The position numbers and the translations under genes are program-made. Source: a virus. Taken from it: DNA of 11,972 nucleotides. The stretch lies in the UHGV virus genome UHGV-1583900. One strand, written 5' to 3'. The notes beneath the pieces are model-generated. The model worked only from the letters and a program-made list of their open reading frames with translations. It was not told where the DNA came from and ran no database searches. Position 1 is the first letter of the stretch. Every line of letters begins with the position of its first letter. This document shows, one piece after another, positions 1 through 11,972 of this stretch.

Positions 1-76
1 AAAACCGACATGTTGATTTCCTGAAACGGGATATCATCAAAGCCATGAACAAAGCAGCCGCGCTGGATGAACTGAT

Positions 77-643
77 ATGGGCCGCAGTGCGGCGAACAAC
101 ATCACGCAGTCCGGCGGCACGGAGTGGAGCAAGCGTGACAAGTCCACGTATGACCCGACCGACGATATCGAAGCCTACGCGCTGAACGCCAGCGGTGTGG
201 TGAATATCATCGTGTTTGATCCGAAAGGCTGGGCGCTGTTCCGTTCCTTCAAAGCCGTCAAGGAGAAGCTGGATACCCGTCGCGGCTCTCATTCCGAGCT
301 GGAGACAGCGGTGAAAGACCTGGGCAAAGCGGTGTCCTATAAGGGGATGTATGGCGATGTGGCCATCGTCGTGTATTCCGGACAGTACGTGGAAAACGGC
401 GTCAAAAAGAACTTCCTGCCGGACAACACGATGGTGCTGGGGAACACTCAGGCACGCGGTCTGCGCACCTATGGCTGCATTCAGGATGCGGACGCACAGC
501 GCGAAGGTATTAACGCCTCTGCCCGCTACCCGAAAAACTGGGTGACCACCGGCGATCCGGCGCGTGAGTTCACCATGATTCAGTCAGCACCGCTGATGCT
601 GCTGGCTGACCCTGATGAGTTCGTGTCCGTACAACTGGCGTAA
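77..643 (+). CDS. E: Major capsid protein E, C-terminal 188 codons only; 5' part of the gene not readable in this frame
   Basis: Translation ends ...SAPLMLLADPDEFVSVQLA, matching my recollection of the lambda gpE C-terminus over its whole length. The frame is closed upstream by TGA at 68..70 and 14..16, so the expected N-terminal ~150 codons are not encoded in frame. Confidence 0.8.
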   Translation: MGRSAANNITQSGGTEWSKRDKSTYDPTDDIEAYALNASGVVNIIVFDPKGWALFRSFKAVKEKLDTRRGSHSELETAVKDLGKAVSYKGMYGDVAIVVYSGQYVENGVKKNFLPDNTMVLGNTQARGLRTYGCIQDADAQREGINASARYPKNWVTTGDPAREFTMIQSAPLMLLADPDEFVSVQLA

Positions 644-645
644 TC

Positions 646-672
646 ATGGCCCTTCGGGGCCATTTTCTCTCT
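646..672 (+). terminator. Terminator-like hairpin just after E: 7-bp stem ATGGCCC/GGGCCAT with TTCG loop, then a T-rich run
   Basis: Inverted repeat 646..652 / 657..663 with loop 653..656, followed by TTTTCTCTCT. Lies between the E stop (641..643) and the FI ribosome-binding site GGAGGA (675..680). Confidence 0.35.
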
Positions 673-684
673 GTGGAGGAGTCC

Positions 685-1080
685 ATGACGAAAGATGAAC
701 TGATTGCCCGTCTCCGGTCGCTGGGTGAGCAACTGAACCGTGATGTCAGCCTGACGGGGACGAAAGAAGAACTGGCGCTCCGTGTGGCAGAGCTGGAAGA
801 GGAGCTTGATGACACGGATGACGCTGCCGGTCAGGACACATCTGTCAGCCCGGAAAATGCGCTGACCGGACATGAAAATGAGGTGGTATCAGCGCAGCCG
901 GATACCGTGATTGATACGGCTGCTCTGGTCACGGTCGTGGCACTGGTGACGCTGCATACTGATGCACTTCACGCCACGCGGGATGAACCTGTGGCATTTG
1001 TGCTGCCGGGAACGGCGTTTCGTGTCTCTGCCGGTGTGGCAGCCGAAATGACAGAGCGCGGCCTGGCCAGAATGCAATAA
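685..1080 (+). CDS. FI: DNA packaging / head assembly protein FI
   Basis: MTKDELIARLRSLGEQLNRDVSLTG... matches lambda gpFI as I recall it. ATG at 685 is preceded by GGAGGA (675..680). The track ORF from 646 is an upstream in-frame extension that starts inside the hairpin and is unlikely to be used. Confidence 0.85.
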   Translation: MTKDELIARLRSLGEQLNRDVSLTGTKEELALRVAELEEELDDTDDAAGQDTSVSPENALTGHENEVVSAQPDTVIDTAALVTVVALVTLHTDALHATRDEPVAFVLPGTAFRVSAGVAAEMTERGLARMQ

Positions 1081-1091
1081 CGGGAGGCGCT

Positions 1092-1445
1092 GTGGCTGAT
1101 TTCGATAACCTGTTCGATGCTGCCATTGCCCGCGCCGATGAAACGATACGCGGGTACATGGGAACGTCAGCCACCATTACATCCGGTGAGCAGTCAGGTG
1201 CGGTGATACGTGGTGTTTTTGATGACCCTGAAAATATCAGCTATGCCGGACAGGGCGTGCGCGTTGAAGGCTCCAGCCCGTCCCTGTTTGTCCGGACTGA
1301 TGATGCGCGGCAGCTGCGGCGTGGAGACACGCTGACCATCGGTGAGGAAAATTTCTGGGTAGATCGGGTTTCGCCGGATGATGGCGGAAGCTGTCATCTC
1401 TGGCTTGGGCGGGGCGTACCGCCTGCCGTTAACCGTCGCCGCTGA
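1092..1445 (+). CDS. FII: Head-tail joining protein FII
   Basis: MADFDNLFDAAIARADETIRGYMG... 117 aa, matching lambda gpFII. GTG start at 1092 preceded by GGGAGG (1082..1087). Confidence 0.88.
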   Translation: MADFDNLFDAAIARADETIRGYMGTSATITSGEQSGAVIRGVFDDPENISYAGQGVRVEGSSPSLFVRTDDARQLRRGDTLTIGEENFWVDRVSPDDGGSCHLWLGRGVPPAVNRRR

Positions 1446-1456
1446 AAGGGGGATGT

Positions 1457-2035
1457 ATGGCCATAAAAGGTCTTGAGCAGGCCGTTGAAAACCTCAGCCG
1501 TATCAGCAAAACGGCGGTGCCCGGTGCCGCCGCAATGGCCATTAACCGCGTTGCTTCATCCGCGATATCGCAGTAGGCGTCACAGGTTGCCCGTGAGACA
1601 AAGGTACGCCGGAAACTGGTAAAGGAAAGGGCCAGGCTGAAAAGGGCCACGGTCAAAAATCCGCAGGCCAGAATCAGGGTTAACCGGGGGGATTTGCCCG
1701 TAATAAAGCTGGGTAACGCGCGGATTGTCCTGTCCCGACGCAGGCGTCGTAAAAAGGGGCAGCGTTCAGCCCTGAAAGGTGGCGGCAGCGTGCTTGTGGT
1801 GGGAAACCGTCGTATTCCCGGCGCGTTTATTCAGCAACTGAAAAATGGCCGCTGGCATGTCATGCAGCGTGTGGCCGGGAAAAACCGTTACCCCATTGAT
1901 GTGGTGAAAATCCCGATGGCGGTGCCGCTGACCACGGCGTTTAAACAGAATATTGAACGGATACGGCGTGAACGTCTTCCGAAAGAGCTGGGCTATGCGC
2001 TGCAGCATCAACTGAGAATGGTAATAAAGCGATGA
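1457..2035 (+). pseudogene. Z: Tail completion protein Z interrupted by an in-frame amber codon (TAG at 1574..1576, codon 40)
   Basis: ATG 1457 with GGGGGA upstream. Translation MAIKGLEQAVENLSRISKTAVPGAAAMAINRVASSAISQ*ASQVARETKVRRKLVKE...LRMVIKR. The frame is lambda-Z-like on both sides of the TAG with no frameshift; the 1694..2035 track ORF is the 3' part of the same frame. Confidence 0.85.
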
Positions 2036-2427
2036 AACATACTGAACTCCGTGCAGCCGTACTGGATGCACTGGAGAAGCATGACACCGGGGCGACGCTT
2101 TTTGATGGTCGCCCCGCTGTTTTTGATGAGGCGGATTTTCCGGCAATTGCCGTTTATCTCACCGGCGCTGAATACACGGGCGAAGAGCTGGACAGTGATA
2201 CCTGGCAGGCGGAGCTGCATATTGAAGTTTTCCTGCCTGCTCAGGTGCCGGATTCAGAGCTGGATTCGTGGATGGAGTCCCGGATTTATCCGGTGATGAG
2301 CGATATCCCGGCACTGTCAGATTTGATCACCAGTATGGTGGTCAGTGGCTATGACTACCGGCGCGACGATGATGCGGGCCTGTGGAGTTCAGCCGATCTG
2401 ACTTATGTCATTACCTATGAAATGTGA
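2032..2427 (+). CDS. U: Tail tube terminator protein U
   Basis: [45 protein letters not shown]... 131 aa, matching lambda gpU. Start overlaps the Z stop (ATGA at 2032..2035). Confidence 0.9.
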
Positions 2428-2434
2428 GGACGAT

Positions 2435-3175
2435 ATGCCTGTACCAAATCCTGTAATGCCGGTGAAAGGTGCCGGGACCACCCTGTGGGTTTATAAGGGG
2501 AGCGGTGACCCTTATGCGAACCCGCTTTCAGACGTTGACTGGTCGCGTCTGGCAAAAGTTAAAGACCTGACGCCCGGCGAACTGACCGCTGAGTCCTATG
2601 ACGACAGTTATCTCGATGATGAAGATGCGGACTGGACCGCGACCGGACAGGGGCAGAAGTCAGCCGGAGATACCAGCTTCACGCTGGCGTGGATGCCCGG
2701 AGAGCAGGGGCAGCAGGCGCTGCTGGCGTGGTTTAATGAAGGTGATACCCGTGCCTATAAAATCCGCTTCCCGAACGGCACGGTCGATGTGTTCCGTGGC
2801 TGGGTCAGCAGTATCGGTAAGGCGGTGACGGCGAAGGAAGTGATCACCCGCACGGTGAAAGTCACCAACGTGGGACGTCCGTCGATGGCAGAAGATCGCA
2901 GCACGGTAACAGCGGCAACCGGCATGACCGTGACGCCTGCCAGCACTTCGGTGGTGAAAGGGCAGAGCACCACGCTGACCGTGGCATTCCAGCCGGAAGG
3001 CGCAACCGACAAGAGCTTCCGTGCGGTGTCTGCGGATAAAACAAAAGCCACCGTGTCGGTCAGTGGTATGACCATCACCGTGAAAGGCGTTGCTGCAGGC
3101 AAGGTCAACATTCCGGTTGTATCCGGTAATGGTGAACTTGCTGCGGTTGCAGAAATCACTGTCACCGACAGTTAA
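2435..3175 (+). CDS. V: Major tail tube protein V, with C-terminal Ig-like (Big_2-type) domain
   Basis: [42 protein letters not shown]... 246 aa, matching lambda gpV. ATG at 2435 preceded by GAGGA (2426..2430). The track ORF starting at 2405 is a 5' extension into the end of U. Confidence 0.9.
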
Positions 3176-3190
3176 TCCGGAGAGTCAGCG

Positions 3191-3613
3191 ATGTTCCTGA
3201 AAACCGAATCATTTGAACATAACGGCGTGACCGTCACGCTTTCTGAACTGTCAGCCCTGCAGCGTATTGAGCATCTCGCCCTGATGAAACGGCAGGCAGA
3301 ACAGGCGGAGTCAGACAGCAACCGGAAGTTTACTGTGGAAGACGCCATCAGAACCGGTGCTTTTGTGGTGGCTATGTCCCTGTGGCATAACCATCCGCAG
3401 AAGACAAAGCAGCCTTCCATGAATGAAGCCGTTAAACAGATTGAGCAGGAAGTGCTTACCACCTGGCCCACAGAGGCAATTTCTCATGCTGAAAACGTGG
3501 TGTACCGGCTGTCCGGTATGTATGAGTTTGTGGTGAATAATACCCCTGAACAGACAGAGGACGCCGGGCCTGCAGAGCCTGTTTCTGCGGGAAAGTGTTC
3601 GACGGTGAGCTGA
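3191..3613 (+). CDS. G: Tail assembly chaperone G
   Basis: MFLKTESFEHNGVTVTLSELSALQRIEHLALMKRQAEQ... 140 aa, matching lambda gpG. RBS GGAGAG at 3179..3184. Confidence 0.9.
   Translation: MFLKTESFEHNGVTVTLSELSALQRIEHLALMKRQAEQAESDSNRKFTVEDAIRTGAFVVAMSLWHNHPQKTKQPSMNEAVKQIEQEVLTTWPTEAISHAENVVYRLSGMYEFVVNNTPEQTEDAGPAEPVSAGKCSTVS
3589..3595 (+). promoter_or_regulatory. Programmed -1 ribosomal frameshift slippery heptamer G GGA AAG (G to G-T fusion)
   Basis: In the G frame the codons are GCG GGA AAG TGT; the heptamer GGGAAAG sits 6 codons before the G stop. A -1 shift gives GGG AAA GTG TTC GAC, which continues into the T frame. Confidence 0.85.
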
Positions 3614-4029
3614 GTTTTGCCCTGAAACTGGCGCGTGAGATGGGGCGACCCGACTGGCGCGCCATGCTTGCCGGGATGTCATCCACGGAGTATGCCGACT
3701 GGCACCGCTTTTACAGTACCCATTATTTTCATGATGTTCTGCTGGATATGCACTTTTCCGGGCTGACGTACACCGTGCTCAGCCTGTTTTTCAGCGATCC
3801 GGATATGCATCCGCTGGATTTCAGTCTGCTGAACCGGCGCGAGGCTGACGAAGAGCCTGAAGATGATGTGCTGATGCAGAAAGCGGCAGGGCTTGCCGGA
3901 GGCGTCCGCTTTGGCCCGGACGGGAATGAAGTTATCCCCGCTTCCCCGGATGTGGCGGACATGACGGAGGATGACGTAATGCTGATGACAGTATCAGAAG
4001 GGATCGCAGGAGGAGTCCGGTATGGCTGA
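3595..4029 (+). CDS. T: Tail assembly protein T; T-frame segment expressed only as the G-T fusion (3191..3594 joined by -1 frameshift to 3595..4029)
   Basis: T-frame translation VFDGELSFALKLAREMGRPDWRAMLAGMSSTEYADWHRFYSTHYFHDV... matches lambda gpT. No RBS or convincing start of its own; the M in the ORF track is the GTG at 3595 inside the slippery site. Confidence 0.85.
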   Translation: MFDGELSFALKLAREMGRPDWRAMLAGMSSTEYADWHRFYSTHYFHDVLLDMHFSGLTYTVLSLFFSDPDMHPLDFSLLNRREADEEPEDDVLMQKAAGLAGGVRFGPDGNEVIPASPDVADMTEDDVMLMTVSEGIAGGVRYG

Positions 4030-6583
4030 ACCGGTAGGCGATCTGGTCGTTGATTTAAGTCTGGATGCGGCCAGATTTGACGAGCAGATGGCCAGAGTCA
4101 GGCGTCATTTTTCCGGTACGGAAAGTGATGCGAAAAAAACAGCGGCAGTCGTTGAACAGTCGCTGAGCCGACAGGCGCTGGCTGCACAGAAAGCGGGGAT
4201 TTCCGTCGGGCAGTATAAAGCCGCCATGCGTATGCTGCCTGCACAGTTCACCGACGTGGCCACGCAGCTTGCAGGCGGGCAAAGCCCGTGGCTGATCCTG
4301 CTGCAACAGGGGGGTCAGGTTAAGGACTCCTTCGGCGGGATGATCCCCATGTTCAGGGGGCTTGCCGGTGCGATCACCCTGCCGATGGTGGGGGCCACCT
4401 CGCTGGCGGTGGCGACCGGTGCGCTGGCGTATGCCTGGTATCAGGGCAACTCAACCCTGTCCGATTTCAACAAAACGCTGGTCCTTTCCGGCAATCAGGC
4501 GGGACTGACGGCAGATCGTATGCTGGTCCTGTCCAGAGCCGGGCAGGCGGCAGGGCTGACGTTTAACCAGACCAGCGAGTCACTGACGGCGCTGGTGAAT
4601 GCCGGTGTGCGTGGTGGTGAGCAGTTTGAGGCGATCAGCCAGAGTGTGGCGCGTTTCTCCTCTGCATCCGGCGTGGAGGTGGACAAGGTCGCTGAAGCCT
4701 TCGGGAAGCTGACCACAGACCCGACGTCGGGGCTGACGGCGATGGCACGCCAGTTCCATAACGTGACGGCGGAGCAGATTGCGTATGTTGCTCAGTTGCA
4801 GCGTTCCGGCGATGAAGCCGGGGCATTGCAGGCGGCGAACGAGGCCGCAACGAAAGGGTTTGATGACCAGACCCGCCGCCTGAAAGAGAACATGGGCACG
4901 CTGGAGACCTGGGCAGACAGGACAGCACGGGCATTCAAATCCATGTGGGATGCGGTGCTGGATATTGGTCGTCCTGATACCGCGCAGGAGATGCTGATTA
5001 AGGCAGAGGCCGCGTTTAAGAAAGCGGACGATATCTGGAATCTGCGCAAGGATGATTATTTTGTTAACGATGAAGCGCGGGCGCGTTACTGGGATGATCG
5101 TGAAAAGGCCCGTCTTGCGCTTGAAGTCGCCCGAAAGAAGGCTGAGCAGCAGAGTCAACAGGACAAAAATGCGCAGCAGCAGAGCGATACCGAAGCGTCA
5201 CGGCTGAAATATACCGAAGAGGCGCAGAAGGCTTACGAACGGCTGCAGACGCCGCTGGAGAAATATACCGCCCGTCAGGAAGAACTGAACAAGGCACTGA
5301 AAGACGGGAAAATCCTGCAGGCGGATTACAACACGCTGATGGCGGCGGCGAAAAAGGATTATGAAGCGACGCTGAAAAAGCCGAAACAGTCCGGCGTGAA
5401 GGTGTCTGCGGGCGATCGTCAGGAAGACAGTGCTCATGCTGCCCTGCTGACGCTTCAGGCTGAACTCCGGACGCTGGAGAAGCATGCCGGAGCAAATGAG
5501 AAAATCAGCCAGCAGCGCCGGGATTTGTGGAAGGCGGAGAGTCAGTTCGCGGTACTGGAGGAGGCGGCGCAACGTCGCCAGCTGTCCGCACAGGAGAAAT
5601 CCCTGCTGGCGCATAAAGATGAGACGCTGGAGTACAAACGCCAGCTGGCTGCACTTGGCGACAAGGTTACGTATCAGGAGCGCCTGAACGCGCTGGCGCA
5701 GCAGGCGGATAAATTCGCACAGCAGCAACGGGCAAAACGGGCCGCCATTGATGCGAAAAGCCGGGGGCTGACTGACCGGCAGGCAGAACGGGAAGCCACG
5801 GAACAGCGCCTGAAGGAACAGTATGGCGATAATTCGCTGGCGCTGAATAACGTCATGTCAGAGCAGAAAAAGACCTGGGCGGCTGAAGACCTGCTTCGCG
5901 GGAGCTGGATGGCAGGCCTCAGGTCCGGCTGGAGTGAGTGGGAAGAGAGCGCCACGGACAGTATGTCGCAGGTAAAAAGTGCAGCCACGCAGACCTTTGA
6001 TGGTATTGCGCAGAATATGGCGGCGATGCTGACCGGCAGTGAGCAGAACTGGCGCAGCTTCACCCGTTCCGTGCTGTCCATGATGACAGAAATTCTGCTT
6101 AAGCAGGCAATGGTGGGGATTGTCGGGAGTATCGGCAGCGCCATTGGCGGGGCTGTTGGTGGCGGCGCATCCGCGTCAGGCGGTACAGCCATTCAGGCCG
6201 CTGCGGCGAAATTCCATTTTGCAACCGGAGGATTTACGGGAACCGGCGGCAAATATGAGCCAGCGGGGATTGTTCACCGTGGTGAATTTGTCTTCACGAA
6301 GGAGGCAACCAGCCGGATTGGCGTGGGGAATCTTTACCGGCTGATGCGCGGCTATGCCACCGGCGGTTATGTCGGTACACCGGGCAGCATGGCAGACAGC
6401 CGGTCGCAGGCGTCCGGGACGTTTGAGCAGAATAACCATGTGGTGATTAACAACGACGGCACGAACGGTCAGATAGGGCCACAGGCGCTGAAGGCTGTTT
6501 ATGACGTAGCCCGTAAGGCGGCAATGGATGTTGTGACCGGGCAGATGCGTGATGGTGGTCTGTTCTCCGGAGGTGGACGATGA
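4022..6583 (+). CDS. H: Tail tape measure protein H
   Basis: 853 aa, MAEPVGDLVVDLSLDAARFDEQMARVRRHFSGTESDAKK... matching lambda gpH in length and sequence. Start overlaps the end of T (ATGGCTGA). Long coiled-coil-like central region and Gly-rich C-terminal segment. Confidence 0.93.
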   Translation: MAEPVGDLVVDLSLDAARFDEQMARVRRHFSGTESDAKKTAAVVEQSLSRQALAAQKAGISVGQYKAAMRMLPAQFTDVATQLAGGQSPWLILLQQGGQVKDSFGGMIPMFRGLAGAITLPMVGATSLAVATGALAYAWYQGNSTLSDFNKTLVLSGNQAGLTADRMLVLSRAGQAAGLTFNQTSESLTALVNAGVRGGEQFEAISQSVARFSSASGVEVDKVAEAFGKLTTDPTSGLTAMARQFHNVTAEQIAYVAQLQRSGDEAGALQAANEAATKGFDDQTRRLKENMGTLETWADRTARAFKSMWDAVLDIGRPDTAQEMLIKAEAAFKKADDIWNLRKDDYFVNDEARARYWDDREKARLALEVARKKAEQQSQQDKNAQQQSDTEASRLKYTEEAQKAYERLQTPLEKYTARQEELNKALKDGKILQADYNTLMAAAKKDYEATLKKPKQSGVKVSAGDRQEDSAHAALLTLQAELRTLEKHAGANEKISQQRRDLWKAESQFAVLEEAAQRRQLSAQEKSLLAHKDETLEYKRQLAALGDKVTYQERLNALAQQADKFAQQQRAKRAAIDAKSRGLTDRQAEREATEQRLKEQYGDNSLALNNVMSEQKKTWAAEDLLRGSWMAGLRSGWSEWEESATDSMSQVKSAATQTFDGIAQNMAAMLTGSEQNWRSFTRSVLSMMTEILLKQAMVGIVGSIGSAIGGAVGGGASASGGTAIQAAAAKFHFATGGFTGTGGKYEPAGIVHRGEFVFTKEATSRIGVGNLYRLMRGYATGGYVGTPGSMADSRSQASGTFEQNNHVVINNDGTNGQIGPQALKAVYDVARKAAMDVVTGQMRDGGLFSGGGR

Positions 6584-6909
6584 AAACCTTCCGCTGGAAA
6601 GTGAAACCCGGTATGGATGTGGCTTCGGCCCCTTCCGTCAGGAAAGTGCGCTTTGGTGATGGCTATTCTCAGCGAGCGCCTGCCGGGCTGAATGCCAACC
6701 TGAAAACGTACAGCGTGACGCTTTCTGTCCCCCGTGAGGAGGCCACGGTACTGGAGTCGTTTCTGGAAGAGCACGGGGGCTGGAAATCCTTTCTGTGGAC
6801 GCCGCCTTATGAGTGGCGGCAGATAAAGGTGACCTGCGCAAAATGGTCGTCGCGGGTCAGTATGCTGCGTGTTGAGTTCAGCGCAGAGTTTGAACAGGTG
6901 GTGAACTGA
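6580..6909 (+). CDS. M: Tail tip protein M
   Basis: MKTFRWKVKPGMDVASAPSVRKVRFGDGYSQRAPAGLNANLKTYSV... 109 aa, matching lambda gpM. ATGA overlap with the H stop. Confidence 0.9.
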   Translation: MKTFRWKVKPGMDVASAPSVRKVRFGDGYSQRAPAGLNANLKTYSVTLSVPREEATVLESFLEEHGGWKSFLWTPPYEWRQIKVTCAKWSSRVSMLRVEFSAEFEQVVN

Positions 6910-7607
6910 TGCAGGATATCCGGCAGGAAACACTGAATGAATGCACCCGTGCGGAGCAGTCGGCCAGCGTGGTGCTCTGGGAAATCGACCTGACAGAGGT
7001 CGGTGGAGAACGTTATTTTTTCTGTAATGAGCAGAACGAAAAAGGTGAGCCGGTCACCTGGCAGGGGCGACAGTATCAGCCGTATCCCATTCAGGGGAGC
7101 GGTTTTGAACTGAATGGCAAAGGCACCAGTACGCGCCCCACGCTGACGGTTTCTAACCTGTACGGTATGGTCACCGGGATGGCGGAAGATATGCAGAGTC
7201 TGGTCGGCGGAACGGTGGTCCGGCGTAAGGTTTACGCCCGTTTTCTGGATGCGGTGAACTTCGTCAACGGAAACAGTGGCGCCGATCCGGAGCAGGAGGT
7301 GATCAGCCGCTGGCGCATTGAGCAGTGCAGCGAACTGAGCGCGGTGAGTGCCTCTTTTGTACTGTCCACGCCGACGGAAACGGATGGCGCTGTTTTTCCG
7401 GGACGTATCATGCTGGCCAACACCTGCACCTGGACCTATCGCGGTGATGAGTGCGGTTATCACGGTCCGGCGGTCGCGGATGAATATGACCAGCCGACGT
7501 CCGATATCACGAAGGATAAATGCAGCAAATGCCTGAGCGGTTGTAAGTTCCGCAATAACGTCGGCAACTTTGGCGGCTTCCTTTCCATTAACAAACTTTC
7601 GCAGTAA
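6909..7607 (+). CDS. L: Tail tip protein L (Cys-rich C-terminus, Fe-S cluster binding in lambda)
   Basis: MQDIRQETLNECTRAEQSASVVLWEIDLTEVGGERYFFCNEQNEKGEPVTWQGRQYQPY... 232 aa, matching lambda gpL. Start overlaps the M stop by 1 nt (TGATG). Confidence 0.9.
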   Translation: MQDIRQETLNECTRAEQSASVVLWEIDLTEVGGERYFFCNEQNEKGEPVTWQGRQYQPYPIQGSGFELNGKGTSTRPTLTVSNLYGMVTGMAEDMQSLVGGTVVRRKVYARFLDAVNFVNGNSGADPEQEVISRWRIEQCSELSAVSASFVLSTPTETDGAVFPGRIMLANTCTWTYRGDECGYHGPAVADEYDQPTSDITKDKCSKCLSGCKFRNNVGNFGGFLSINKLSQ

Positions 7608-7612
7608 ATCCC

Positions 7613-8356
7613 ATGACACAGACAGAATCAGCGATTCTGGCGCACGCCCGGCGATGTGCGCCAGCGGAGTCGTGCGGCTTCGTGGTAAGCACGCCGGAGG
7701 GGGAAAGATATTTTCCCTGCGTGAATATCTCCGGTGAGCCGGAGGCGTATTTCCGTATGTCGCCGGAAGACTGGCTGCAGGCAGAAATGCAGGGTGAGAT
7801 TGTGGCGCTGGTCCACAGCCACCCCGGTGGTCTGCCCTGGCTGAGTGAGGCCGACCGGCGGCTGCAGGTGCAGAGTGATTTGCCGTGGTGGCTGGTCTGC
7901 CGGGGTGAGATTCATAAATTCCGCTGTGTGCCGCATCTCACCGGGCGGCGCTTTGAGCACGGGGTGACGGACTGTTACACGCTGTTCCGGGACGCTTACC
8001 ATCTGGCGGGAATTGAGATGCCGGATTTTCATCGCGGGGATGACTGGTGGCGTAACGGCCAGAATCTCTATCTGGATAATCTGGAGGCGACGGGGCTGTA
8101 TCAGGTGCCGTTGTCAGCGGCACAGCCGGGCGATGTGCTGCTGTGCTGTTTTGGTTCATCAGTGCCGAATCACGCCGCAATTTACTGCGGCGACGGCGAG
8201 CTGCTGCACCATATTCCTGAACAACTGAGCAAACGAGAGAGGTATACCGACAAATGGCAGCGACGCACACACTCCCTCTGGCGTCACCGGGCATGGCACG
8301 CATCTGCCTTTACGGGGATTTACAACGATTTGGCCGCCGCATCGACCTTCGTGTGA
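7613..8356 (+). CDS. K: Tail tip assembly protein K (JAB/MPN metalloprotease-like domain + NlpC/P60-like domain); classical lambda annotation starts at the internal ATG 7757
   Basis: ORF of 247 codons from ATG 7613, 5 nt after the L stop. JAMM-type motif HSHPGGLPWLSEAD at 7814..7855 with an upstream E-x-CG element (AESCGFVV); downstream Cys/His papain-like residues (VTDCYTLF, NHAAIY). Internal ATG at 7757 preceded by GGAGG gives the 199-aa version. Confidence 0.8.
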   Translation: MTQTESAILAHARRCAPAESCGFVVSTPEGERYFPCVNISGEPEAYFRMSPEDWLQAEMQGEIVALVHSHPGGLPWLSEADRRLQVQSDLPWWLVCRGEIHKFRCVPHLTGRRFEHGVTDCYTLFRDAYHLAGIEMPDFHRGDDWWRNGQNLYLDNLEATGLYQVPLSAAQPGDVLLCCFGSSVPNHAAIYCGDGELLHHIPEQLSKRERYTDKWQRRTHSLWRHRAWHASAFTGIYNDLAAASTFV

Positions 8357-8925
8357 AAACGGGGGCTGAAGCCATCCGGGCACTGGCCACACAGCTCCCG
8401 GCGTTTCGTCAGAAACTGAGCGACGGCTGGTATCAGGTACGGATTGCCGGGCGGGACGTCAGCACGTCCGGGTTAACGGCGCAGTTACATGAGACTCTGC
8501 CTGATGGCGCTGTGATTCATATTGTTCCCAGAGTCGCCGGGGCCAAGTCAGGTGGCGTATTCCAGATTGTCCTGGGGGCTGCCGCCATTGCCGGATCATT
8601 CTTTACCGCCGGAGCCACCCTTGCAGCATGGGGGGCAGCCATTGGGGCCGGTGGTATGACCGGCATCCTGTTTTCTCTCGGTGCCAGTATGGTGCTCGGT
8701 GGTGTGGCGCAGATGCTGGCACCGAAAGCCAGAACTCCCCGTACACAGACAACGGATAACGGCAAACAGAACACCTATTTCTCCTCACTGGATAACATGG
8801 TTGCCCAGGGCAATGTTCTGCCTGTTCTGTACGGGGAAATGCGCGTGGGGTCACGCGTGGTTTCTCAGGAGATCAGCACGGCAGACGAAGGGGACGGTGG
8901 TCAGGTTGTGGTGATTGGTCGCTGA
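8254..8925 (+). CDS. I: Tail tip assembly protein I (ubiquitin-like N-terminal region, hydrophobic Gly/Ala-rich central segment)
   Basis: MAATHTLPLASPGMARICLYGDLQRFGRRIDLRVKTGAEAIRALATQLPAFRQKL... 223 aa, matching lambda gpI. Overlaps the last 103 nt of K in a different frame. Confidence 0.9.
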   Translation: MAATHTLPLASPGMARICLYGDLQRFGRRIDLRVKTGAEAIRALATQLPAFRQKLSDGWYQVRIAGRDVSTSGLTAQLHETLPDGAVIHIVPRVAGAKSGGVFQIVLGAAAIAGSFFTAGATLAAWGAAIGAGGMTGILFSLGASMVLGGVAQMLAPKARTPRTQTTDNGKQNTYFSSLDNMVAQGNVLPVLYGEMRVGSRVVSQEISTADEGDGGQVVVIGR

Positions 8926-8943
8926 TGCAAAATGTTTTATGTG

Positions 8944-8970
8944 AAACCGCCTGCGGGCGGTTTTGTCGTT
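8944..8970 (+). terminator. Terminator-like hairpin between I and J: 8-bp stem AAACCGCC/GGCGGTTT, TGCG loop, T-rich tail
   Basis: Perfect inverted repeat 8944..8951 / 8956..8963 with 4-nt loop, followed by TTTTGTCGTTT. Sits in the 60-nt I-J intergenic spacer. Confidence 0.35.
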
Positions 8971-8985
8971 TATGGAGCGTGAGGA

Positions 8986-11972
8986 ATGGGTAAAGGAAGC
9001 AGTAAGGGGCATACCCCGCGCGAAGCGAAGGACAACCTGAAGTCCACGCAGTTGCTGAGTGTGATCGATGCCATCAGCGAAGGGCCGATTGAAGGTCCGG
9101 TGGATGGATTAAAAAGCGTGCTGCTGAACAGTACGCCGGTGCTGGACAGTGAGGGGAATACCAACATCTCCGGTGTCACGGTGGTGTTCCGGGCAGGTGA
9201 GCAGGAGCAGAGTCCGCCGGAGGGATTTGAATCCTCCGGCTCCGAGACGGTGCTGGGTACGGAAGTGAAATATGACACGCCGATCACCCGCACCATCACG
9301 TCGGCAAACATCGACCGTCTGCGCTTTACCTTCGGTGTGCAGGCACTGGTGGAAACCACCTCAAAGGGGGACCGGAATCCGTCGGAAGTCCGCCTGCTGG
9401 TTCAGATACAGCGTAATGGTGGCTGGGTGACGGAAAAAGACATCACCATTAAGGGCAAAACCACCTCGCAGTATCTGGCCTCGGTGGTGGTGGATAACCT
9501 GCCGCCGCGCCCGTTTAATATCCGGATGCGCAGGATGACGCCGGACAGCACCACAGACCAGCTGCAGAACAAAACGCTCTGGTCGTCATACACCGAAATC
9601 ATCGATGTGAAACAGTGCTACCCGAACACGGCACTGGTCGGCGTGCAGGTGGACTCGGAACAGTTCGGCAGCCAGCAGGTGAGCCGTAATTATCATCTTC
9701 GCGGGCGCATTCTGCAGGTGCCGTCGAACTATAACCCGCAGACGCGGCAATACAGCGGTATCTGGGACGGAACGTTTAAGCCAGCATACAGCAACAACAT
9801 GGCCTGGTGTCTGTGGGATATGCTGACCCATCCGCGCTACGGCATGGGGAAACGTCTTGGTGCGGCGGATGTGGACAAATGGGCGCTGTATGTCATCGGC
9901 CAGTACTGCGACCAGTCAGTGCCGGACGGCTTTGGCGGCACGGAGCCGCGCATCACCTGTAATGCGTACCTGACCACACAGCGCAAGGCGTGGGATGTGC
10001 TCAGTGATTTCTGCTCGGCGATGCGCTGTATGCCGGTATGGAACGGGCAGACGCTGACGTTCGTGCAGGACCGACCGTCGGATAAGGTGTGGACCTATAA
10101 CCGCAGTAATGTGGTGATGCCGGATGATGGCGCGCCGTTCCGCTACAGCTTCAGCGCCCTGAAGGACCGCCATAATGCCGTTGAGGTGAACTGGATTGAC
10201 CCGAACAACGGCTGGGAGACGGCGACAGAGCTTGTTGAAGATACGCAGGCCATTGCCCGTTACGGTCGTAACGTCACGAAGATGGATGCCTTTGGCTGTA
10301 CCAGCCGGGGGCAGGCGCACCGCGCCGGGCTGTGGCTGATTAAAACGGAACTGCTGGAAACGCAGACCGTGGACTTCAGCGTGGGTGCGGAAGGGCTTCG
10401 CCATGTGCCGGGCGATGTCATTGAAATCTGCGATGATGACTATGCGGGGATCAGCACCGGCGGGCGCGTGCTGGCGGTGAACAGCCAGACCCGGACGCTG
10501 ACGCTCGACCGTGAAATCACGCTGCCATCCTCCGGTACCACGCTGATAAGCCTGGTTGACGGAAGTGGCAATCCGGTCAGCGTGGAGGTCCAGTCCGTCA
10601 CCGACGGCGTGAAGGTAAAAGTGAGCCGTGTTCCTGACGGCGTTGCCGGATACAGCGTATGGGGGCTGAAGCTGCCGACGCTGCGCCAGCGCCTGTTCCG
10701 CTGCGTGAGTATCCGTGAGAACGACGACGGCACGTATGCCATCACCGCCGTGCAGCATGTACCGGAAAAAGAAGCCATCGTGGATAACGGGGCGCACTTT
10801 GACGGCGACCAGAGCGGCACGGTGAATGGTGTCACGCCGCCAGCGGTGCAGCACCTGACTGCCGAAGTCACCGCAGACAGCGGGGAATATCAGGTGCTGG
10901 CGCGCTGGGACACGCCGAAGGTGGTGAAGGGCGTGAGTTTCATGCTTCGCCTGACCGTGGCAGCGGATGACGGCAGTGAGCGGCTGGTCAGCACGGCCCG
11001 GACGACGGAAACCACTTACCGCTTCACACAACTGGCTCTGGGGAACTACAGGCTGACAGTCCGGGCAGTAAATGCGTGGGGGCAGCAGGGCGATCCGGCG
11101 TCGGTATCGTTCCGGATTGCCGCACCGGCAGCGCCGTCGCGGATTGAGCTGACGCCGGGCTATTTTCAGATAACCGCCACGCCGCATCTTGCGGTTTATG
11201 ACCCGACGGTACAGTTTGAGTTCTGGTTCTCGGAAAAGCGGATTGCGGATATCAGGCAGGTTGAAACCACAGCCCGCTATCTTGGCACGGCGCTGTACTG
11301 GATAGCCGCCAGTATCAATATCAAACCGGGCCATGATTATTACTTTTATATCCGCAGTGTGAACACCGTTGGCAAATCGGCATTCGTGGAGGCTGTCGGT
11401 CAGCCGAGTGATGATGCATCAGGCTATCTGGATTTTTTCAAAGGCGAGATAGGGAAAACCCATCTGGCTCAGGAGCTGTGGACGCAGATTGATAACGGTC
11501 AGCTTGCGCCTGACCTGACTGAAATCAGGACGTCCATAACGGATGTCAGCAATGAAATCACACAGACCGTCAATAAGAAACTGGAAGACCAGAGTGCAGC
11601 GATCCAGCAGATACAGAAGGTTCAGGTTGATACAAATAATAACCTGAACAGCATGTGGGCAGTGAAGCTGCAGCAGATGCAGGACGGACGCCTTTATATT
11701 GCGGGTATCGGTGCCGGTATTGAGAACACCCCTGACGGCATGCAGAGTCAGGTGCTGCTGGCGGCGGACAGGATTGCGATGATTAATCCTGCAAATGGCA
11801 ACACAAAACCGATGTTTGTTGGTCAGGGTGATCAGATATTCATGAATGAAGTGTTCCTGAAATATCTGACGGCTCCCACCATTACCAGCGGCGGTAATCC
11901 TCCGGCATTTTCCCTGACACCGGACGGGCGGCTGACGGCGAAAAATGCTGATATCAGCGGTAACGTGAATGC
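8986..11972 (+). CDS. J: Central tail fiber / host specificity protein J, N-terminal ~995 codons (runs off the right edge of the window)
   Basis: ATG 8986 preceded by GAGGAA. Translation [54 protein letters not shown]... matches lambda gpJ. Frame read codon by codon to 11972 with no stop; absent from the ORF track only because it is open-ended. Confidence 0.92.

Follow-up and report, generated by a model that had tools for sequence, protein, structure and literature searches.

What should be made of a single amber codon in tail gene Z of an Escherichia coli lambdoid prophage, when the remainder of the reading frame is intact? In bacteriophage lambda, particles without the product of this gene, gpZ, look normal and are mostly non-infectious, an effect that has been ascribed to wrong placement of the DNA where head and tail meet (PMC11099176), and gpZ has been detected in virions by mass spectrometry (PMC10721106). 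Because lambda without gpZ is mostly non-infectious, a stop at codon 40 of Z should be a null allele. By comparing the locus with lambda, with complete E. coli genomes and with phage and metagenome collections, we found the stop to be ordinary: it stems either from an early step in the decay of a defective prophage or from a base error at low coverage. A single stop in a lambdoid tail gene is nothing novel.

The window, by which we mean the whole stretch of DNA that was analysed (11,972 nucleotides; UHGV virus genome UHGV-1583900), corresponds to one whole metagenome contig assembled with SPAdes (ENA assembly ERZ507920, NODE_2416) at a k-mer coverage of 3.71x. Its backbone is that of an E. coli lambdoid prophage: in an alignment to the related prophage L001, positions 74-11972 are 97.9% identical and carry, in this order, the middle of E followed by FI, FII, Z, U, V, G, T, H, M, L, K, I and J. 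The features discussed below are collected in the table.

Features of the window, with strand and the observation on which each assignment rests
Feature	Position	Strand	Basis or state
nu1 3' end (terminase small subunit gene)	1..77	+	100% identical to L001 3001-3077 (blastn)
GATA microhomology at the nu1/E junction	74..77	+	alignment to L001
Remnant of major capsid gene E, last 188 codons	77..643	+	PF03864
FI	685..1080	+	intact
FII	1092..1445	+	intact
gpZ (tail completion protein) frame	1457..2035	+	192 codons plus stop, interrupted at codon 40; translation, PF06763, order as in lambda
N-terminal Z remnant ORF, 39 codons	1457..1576	+	PF06763 profile positions 1-37; no gene call on the source contig
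Amber TAG, codon 40 of Z	1574..1576	+	A at 1575 in place of the C of TCG (Ser)
C-terminal Z fragment, 81 codons, internal GTG start	1790..2035	+	profile positions 111-190; sole piece of Z called as a gene
U, V, G, T, H, M, L, K, I	2032..8925	+	all open, usual length
J (tail tip), first 995 codons	8986..11972	+	open, runs off the contig end
Other clean private base, C to G (ACT to AGT, Thr76Ser in J)	9212	+	C in 45/45 aligned loci

Translation of the plus strand between 1457 and 2035 yields 39 sense codons, TAG at 1574-1576, 152 more sense codons and TGA at 2033-2035, without a frameshift, so that an uninterrupted Z frame of about 192 codons is precluded by the TAG at codon 40 alone. The frame lies where lambda has Z, between FII (1092-1445) and U (2032-2427). 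When Ser40 is restored, its product matches the Pfam family PF06763 (Minor_tail_Z) over profile positions 1-190 of 190 with 273.9 bits, far above the cut-off of 23.9, and the two pieces that are left by the stop still score 47.4 bits (N-terminal fragment) and 125.3 bits (C-terminal fragment). The full-length family match and the 152 codons beyond the TAG thus bear out what an earlier note, made from the letters of this DNA, had described as a lone in-frame amber at codon 40 of an otherwise intact Z frame. As the frame is otherwise identical to a known protein, the stop is no chance feature of an open frame. The next in-frame codon at which translation could restart is a TTG at 1694, 40 codons past the amber.

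For the ancestral codon the earlier note had looked to lambda Z (NC_001416), and the alignment supplies it: lambda has C at 1575, in a TCG codon for serine. The same base is present in twelve further aligned Z genes and, on a wider scale, in 248 of the 248 aligned loci from a panel of about 265. Since lambda and all comparators carry C at this position, a TCG codon (Ser) was ancestral and its C was replaced by A. Over its full length the Z DNA of the window is 97.1% identical to lambda Z (17/579 mismatches) and 99.7% identical to that of the closest complete E. coli genome.

The A at 1575 was met nowhere else. The exact 61-mer around the TAG is absent from 5426 complete E. coli genomes, in which the same 61-mer with one to three mismatches is found in 3443 records. 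A 23-mer containing the TAG gave zero matches in IMG/VR, in the metagenome contigs and in the species-representative genomes, the last of which were empty in two scans but, with one genome per species, have little power for an E. coli allele; the corresponding 23-mer with TCG occurs on at least 120 contigs in IMG/VR and on at least 120 in the metagenome set. None of the 108 phage records that match Z carries the amber allele, the best Z identity among them being 99.1%. In total, the TAG form of Z remained unmatched across the five collections searched. Its ancestor, on the other hand, is readily recognized. The Ser-restored Z is a letter-exact copy of P0031, a Z protein found on at least 1000 contigs, and reversion of position 1575 leaves a surrounding stretch of 673 bases without any difference from locus L222, and one of 651 bases without any difference from the closest complete genome. 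The Z stop is a private one-step derivative of a very common allele. Of the 'very recent inactivation' that had been suggested for this gene, the recency is upheld by the identity of the restored protein with a widespread allele and by the 673 bases shared with L222; these same data do not divide an inactivation from a base error.

The other genes of the window show how well the contig is preserved outside codon 40. No further internal stop or frameshift is present in its 13 other frames. Nine of the small proteins match a known protein letter for letter: that of FI recurs on 51 contigs and that of FII on at least 1000, and those of U, V, G, M, L, K and I each recur on between 3 and at least 1000 other contigs. 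Where G ends, the slippery heptamer of the programmed G-T frameshift, GGGAAAG, is preserved (3589-3595). When the H protein was searched for as an exact match, only this contig came back, the best DNA match for H in complete E. coli genomes being 99.1%, and the exact K protein is common to phages whose Z is only 82% identical. The element is a mosaic without a near-identical sequenced relative. Apart from 1575 and the private base in J listed in the table, base 11949, located 24 bases from the contig end, is also absent elsewhere, but only 15 loci align at that position.

To appreciate a single stop in a tail gene, it is necessary to consider how often such genes are found broken. The 240 loci used for this count were collected by means of the wild-type 23-mer and were unselected for gene integrity. 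Among their 212 full-length Z matches, ten were broken (in eight the length is not divisible by three, and two contain an internal stop), and the remaining 202 were uninterrupted, all with C at the amber site. Counted gene by gene, 1-5% of the copies of each tail gene were broken in the unselected loci, with about 1-4% for the tail genes other than Z and one case in a contig of 38x. The thinnest contigs, L214 (1.5x) and L150 (2.2x), each had several broken genes. To find a lambdoid tail gene disabled by a single lesion is nothing unusual in assemblies. The prophage with the closest Z (99.7%), L027 (NZ_CP147009.1, strain FACU 2024), is itself annotated with an internal stop in its portal gene (5878-7464) and a frameshifted K (17157-17899).

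Both fragments of the interrupted gene have counterparts in sequence indexes. The 81-aa C-terminal product is indexed in 2623 blocks, and all of the ten places examined have C at the amber site. Nine of these ten Z genes are broken by 1-base indels, six of them at a run of six G residues that corresponds to 1686-1691, and the tenth (L017) is intact; the G6 run is either a real frameshift hot spot or a site of homopolymer error in long-read assemblies. The 39-aa N-terminal product is indexed in 96 blocks, and the ten places examined proved to be genes cut by the end of a contig, an exact 39-aa query by itself selecting contigs that end at that point. As these products continue with TC or stop at codon 39, they are no amber alleles.

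At its left end the window shows a second and much larger lesion. The 3' end of nu1 is joined to the middle of E at a GATA microhomology, and 5893 bases of L001 are missing at this junction, comprising A, W, B, C/Nu3, D and E codons 1-153. As assembled, the element is without terminase, portal, protease, decoration protein and half of the capsid gene. An identical nu1/E junction was found neither in the complete E. coli genomes nor in any other record, and the junction is only 77 bases away from the contig end. The contig thus starts exactly 77 bases before the sequence departs from nu1, which, given the behaviour of the assembler, would fit a SPAdes edge leaving a branching vertex at k=77. 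With k at 77 and a read length of about 150 bases, the nu1/E junction would have to be crossed by no fewer than two different reads. A vertex of this kind would also imply that an intact nu1-A path was present beside the junction reads in one sample. A comparable event is known from the complete E. coli genome NZ_CM149577.1 (L278 14076-15110), in which an independent A'-E' deletion has fused a terminase fragment to an N-terminally truncated capsid gene, and in which the tail genes are all intact despite the deletion. This genome demonstrates that such head-less remnants exist. The nu1-to-E deletion is probably real in the DNA.

Because of this 5.9-kb loss of head genes, the element is probably unable to make heads whatever the state of Z. 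Going by the gene content of the contig as assembled, it would not give infectious particles even with an intact Z. The effect of the amber on particle infectivity would be moot here, since the element as assembled could not build heads or package DNA.

Two observations on truncated E genes elsewhere were made alongside. On a metagenome scaffold (L268 1-240) an E remnant starts 3 bases from the position of the window's junction; the 224 bases that are joined to it are absent from complete E. coli genomes, and an AGGAGG is located just upstream of an ATG. This scaffold may be chimeric, and it is neutral with respect to the nu1/E deletion. Furthermore, a satellite-like gene set was noticed upstream of lambdoid head and tail genes in three loci (L002 1642-9184, L006 1-4663 and L019 123-4853), consisting of a D5-type primase, an SSB, an E-like capsid protein (346 aa), a decoration protein and AlpA. 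In L002 and L019 the set is located directly upstream of a truncated E (254 aa), which is followed by FI, FII and Z, and in L002 the region also holds a gene for a TIR-domain protein. The arrangement looks like a capsid-forming island beside a tails-only prophage remnant.

A conditional role for the TAG was considered in several forms. Amber mutants of lambda tail genes were isolated classically, and a clean amber in a Z that has no other lesion would agree with a suppressor-dependent allele, i.e. a laboratory lambda Zam or a natural phage propagated on an amber-suppressing host, in which Ser40 would be replaced. The Zam-type allele that the earlier note had put forward does not hold up against the origin and make-up of the contig, which comes from a metagenome, differs from lambda at 17 of the 579 positions of Z, lacks head genes and has no tRNA gene in the window. 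The loss of head genes would be intolerable in any propagated phage stock, no complete E. coli genome matches H at more than 99.1%, and the amber is carried by none of the 108 Z-matching phage records, so that we regard a suppressor-dependent allele as very unlikely. Highly improbable, likewise, is a real TAG that a natural population maintains as a conditional allele, with a tails-only remnant expressing Z only under amber suppression. Still further from being credible is a TAG that is read as sense or serves as a programmed stop, by reassignment or read-through, or a Z that naturally consists of two conserved genes. Reassignment would agree with the absence of TAG among the stops of the 12 complete genes of the window, but TAG is the rarest stop in E. 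coli and such an absence is to be expected. Moreover, there is just one in-frame TAG in the 14 reading frames, a search of the window returned no tRNA gene, and all 248 homologous loci have the sense codon TCG. The earlier note had mentioned homologs that end naturally at codon 40 as an outcome that would speak against a lesion; what we found instead is that 202 of the 212 full-length Z genes are uninterrupted, all with C. A conserved split Z is ruled out by these homologs, the 39-aa products in the ten places examined elsewhere being contig-end truncations with wild-type TC.

What is left is the choice between a mutation of the element and an error of the sequence, and to the former, a real and very recent null mutation in a defective prophage, we give about an even chance. 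According to this proposal, a private C-to-A change at 1575 would have turned Ser40 (TCG) of Z into an amber codon in an E. coli lambdoid prophage, and translation of Z would end after 39 residues. Since a restart would be offered only 40 codons downstream (TTG 1694), no functional gpZ would be made. The head genes would have been lost before the Z stop arose, an order that we infer; the tail genes of the head-less element would then have been freed from selection for phage production, and the Z stop may represent early neutral decay. Both the A at 1575 and the nu1/E junction would accordingly have to be present in the DNA and not created by sequencing. The proposal agrees with the nature of the change, by which TCG became TAG in a gene whose close homologs are intact and whose restored protein is P0031, and with its context, as an element without head genes is where a stop in a tail gene would be tolerated. 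Broken tail genes are frequent in the unselected loci, and the assembly does contain a head-gene deletion. With two clean private bases in 11.4 kb (0.18 per kb), the contig moreover stays below the 0.52 per kb of contigs with a coverage of 10x or more, and therefore no excess of errors need be assumed. Against a real mutation stand the coverage of only 3.7x, the fact that the A at 1575 was seen nowhere else, and the nature of the two clean private bases (1575 and 9212), both of which are non-synonymous transversions. The junction that would have relaxed selection is close to the contig end and absent from any other assembly. Furthermore, no other decay of tail genes is visible, which means that the period of relaxed selection must have been very short.

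Somewhat below even, but still substantial, is the chance that the sampled prophage has TCG and an intact Z, and that the A stems from one or two erroneous reads which, in a region of 3.7x, provided all or the prevailing support for this base. A contig coverage of 3.71x would permit this, the A is a singleton when set against 248 aligned loci, 3443 E. coli genome records and at least 240 contigs with TCG, and reversion of this one base restores an exact and very common protein. Of random substitutions in these ORFs, 3.4% create a stop, and one that arose as an error would be unopposed by selection. In the calibration set, singleton rates are not raised at low coverage, but singletons are richer in transversions in contigs below 5x (20/40) than in contigs of at least 10x (21/75; Fisher p = 0.025), which suggests that part of the low-coverage singletons are errors and is not decisive. 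C>A/G>T changes in particular are a known oxidative-damage artefact of library preparation. Among the calibration contigs, however, this class is no more frequent at low coverage (6/40) than at high coverage (12/75), which speaks for a real mutation and against an error. Also unfavourable to an error is that the contig is otherwise quiet, with no frameshift, no second stop and nine exact protein matches, that its singleton rate lies under that of high-coverage contigs, with no excess of private or disabling changes, and that genuine internal stops in tail genes are known from high-coverage and isolate-derived sequences. The base-call error that the earlier note had listed next to a recent inactivation survives alongside it. 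A real mutation and a base error predict nearly the same data.

In either case the Z amber finding matters little. If the mutation is real, it is one more example of the fast breakage of structural genes once a prophage cannot make particles; if it is an error, it cautions against taking an isolated stop for biology when a contig is covered less than about 5x. The lesson is to check the source, the coverage and the neighbouring essential genes before giving weight to a single stop in an 'otherwise intact' gene.

The gene described here agrees in length with that of lambda gpZ (PF06763, UniProt P03731), lies likewise between FII and U and is 97% identical to it in DNA, but its frame is interrupted, and its backbone is that of a wild E. 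coli lambdoid prophage and not that of lambda PaPa. With the classical amber (sus) tail mutants of lambda it shares a single amber in an otherwise intact essential tail gene; in contrast to these mutants, it has no lambda backbone and no laboratory source, and its head genes are absent. Substitution errors of low-coverage short-read assemblies offer another likeness, in that a singleton transversion is found at 3.7x and its reversion restores a common allele, whereas the rest of the contig is without an error signature. Compared with the cryptic lambdoid prophages of E. coli, finally, the element differs in that both of its lesions rest on one low-coverage metagenome contig and are found in no other assembly, and it resembles them in combining a block deletion of essential genes with a point lesion elsewhere.
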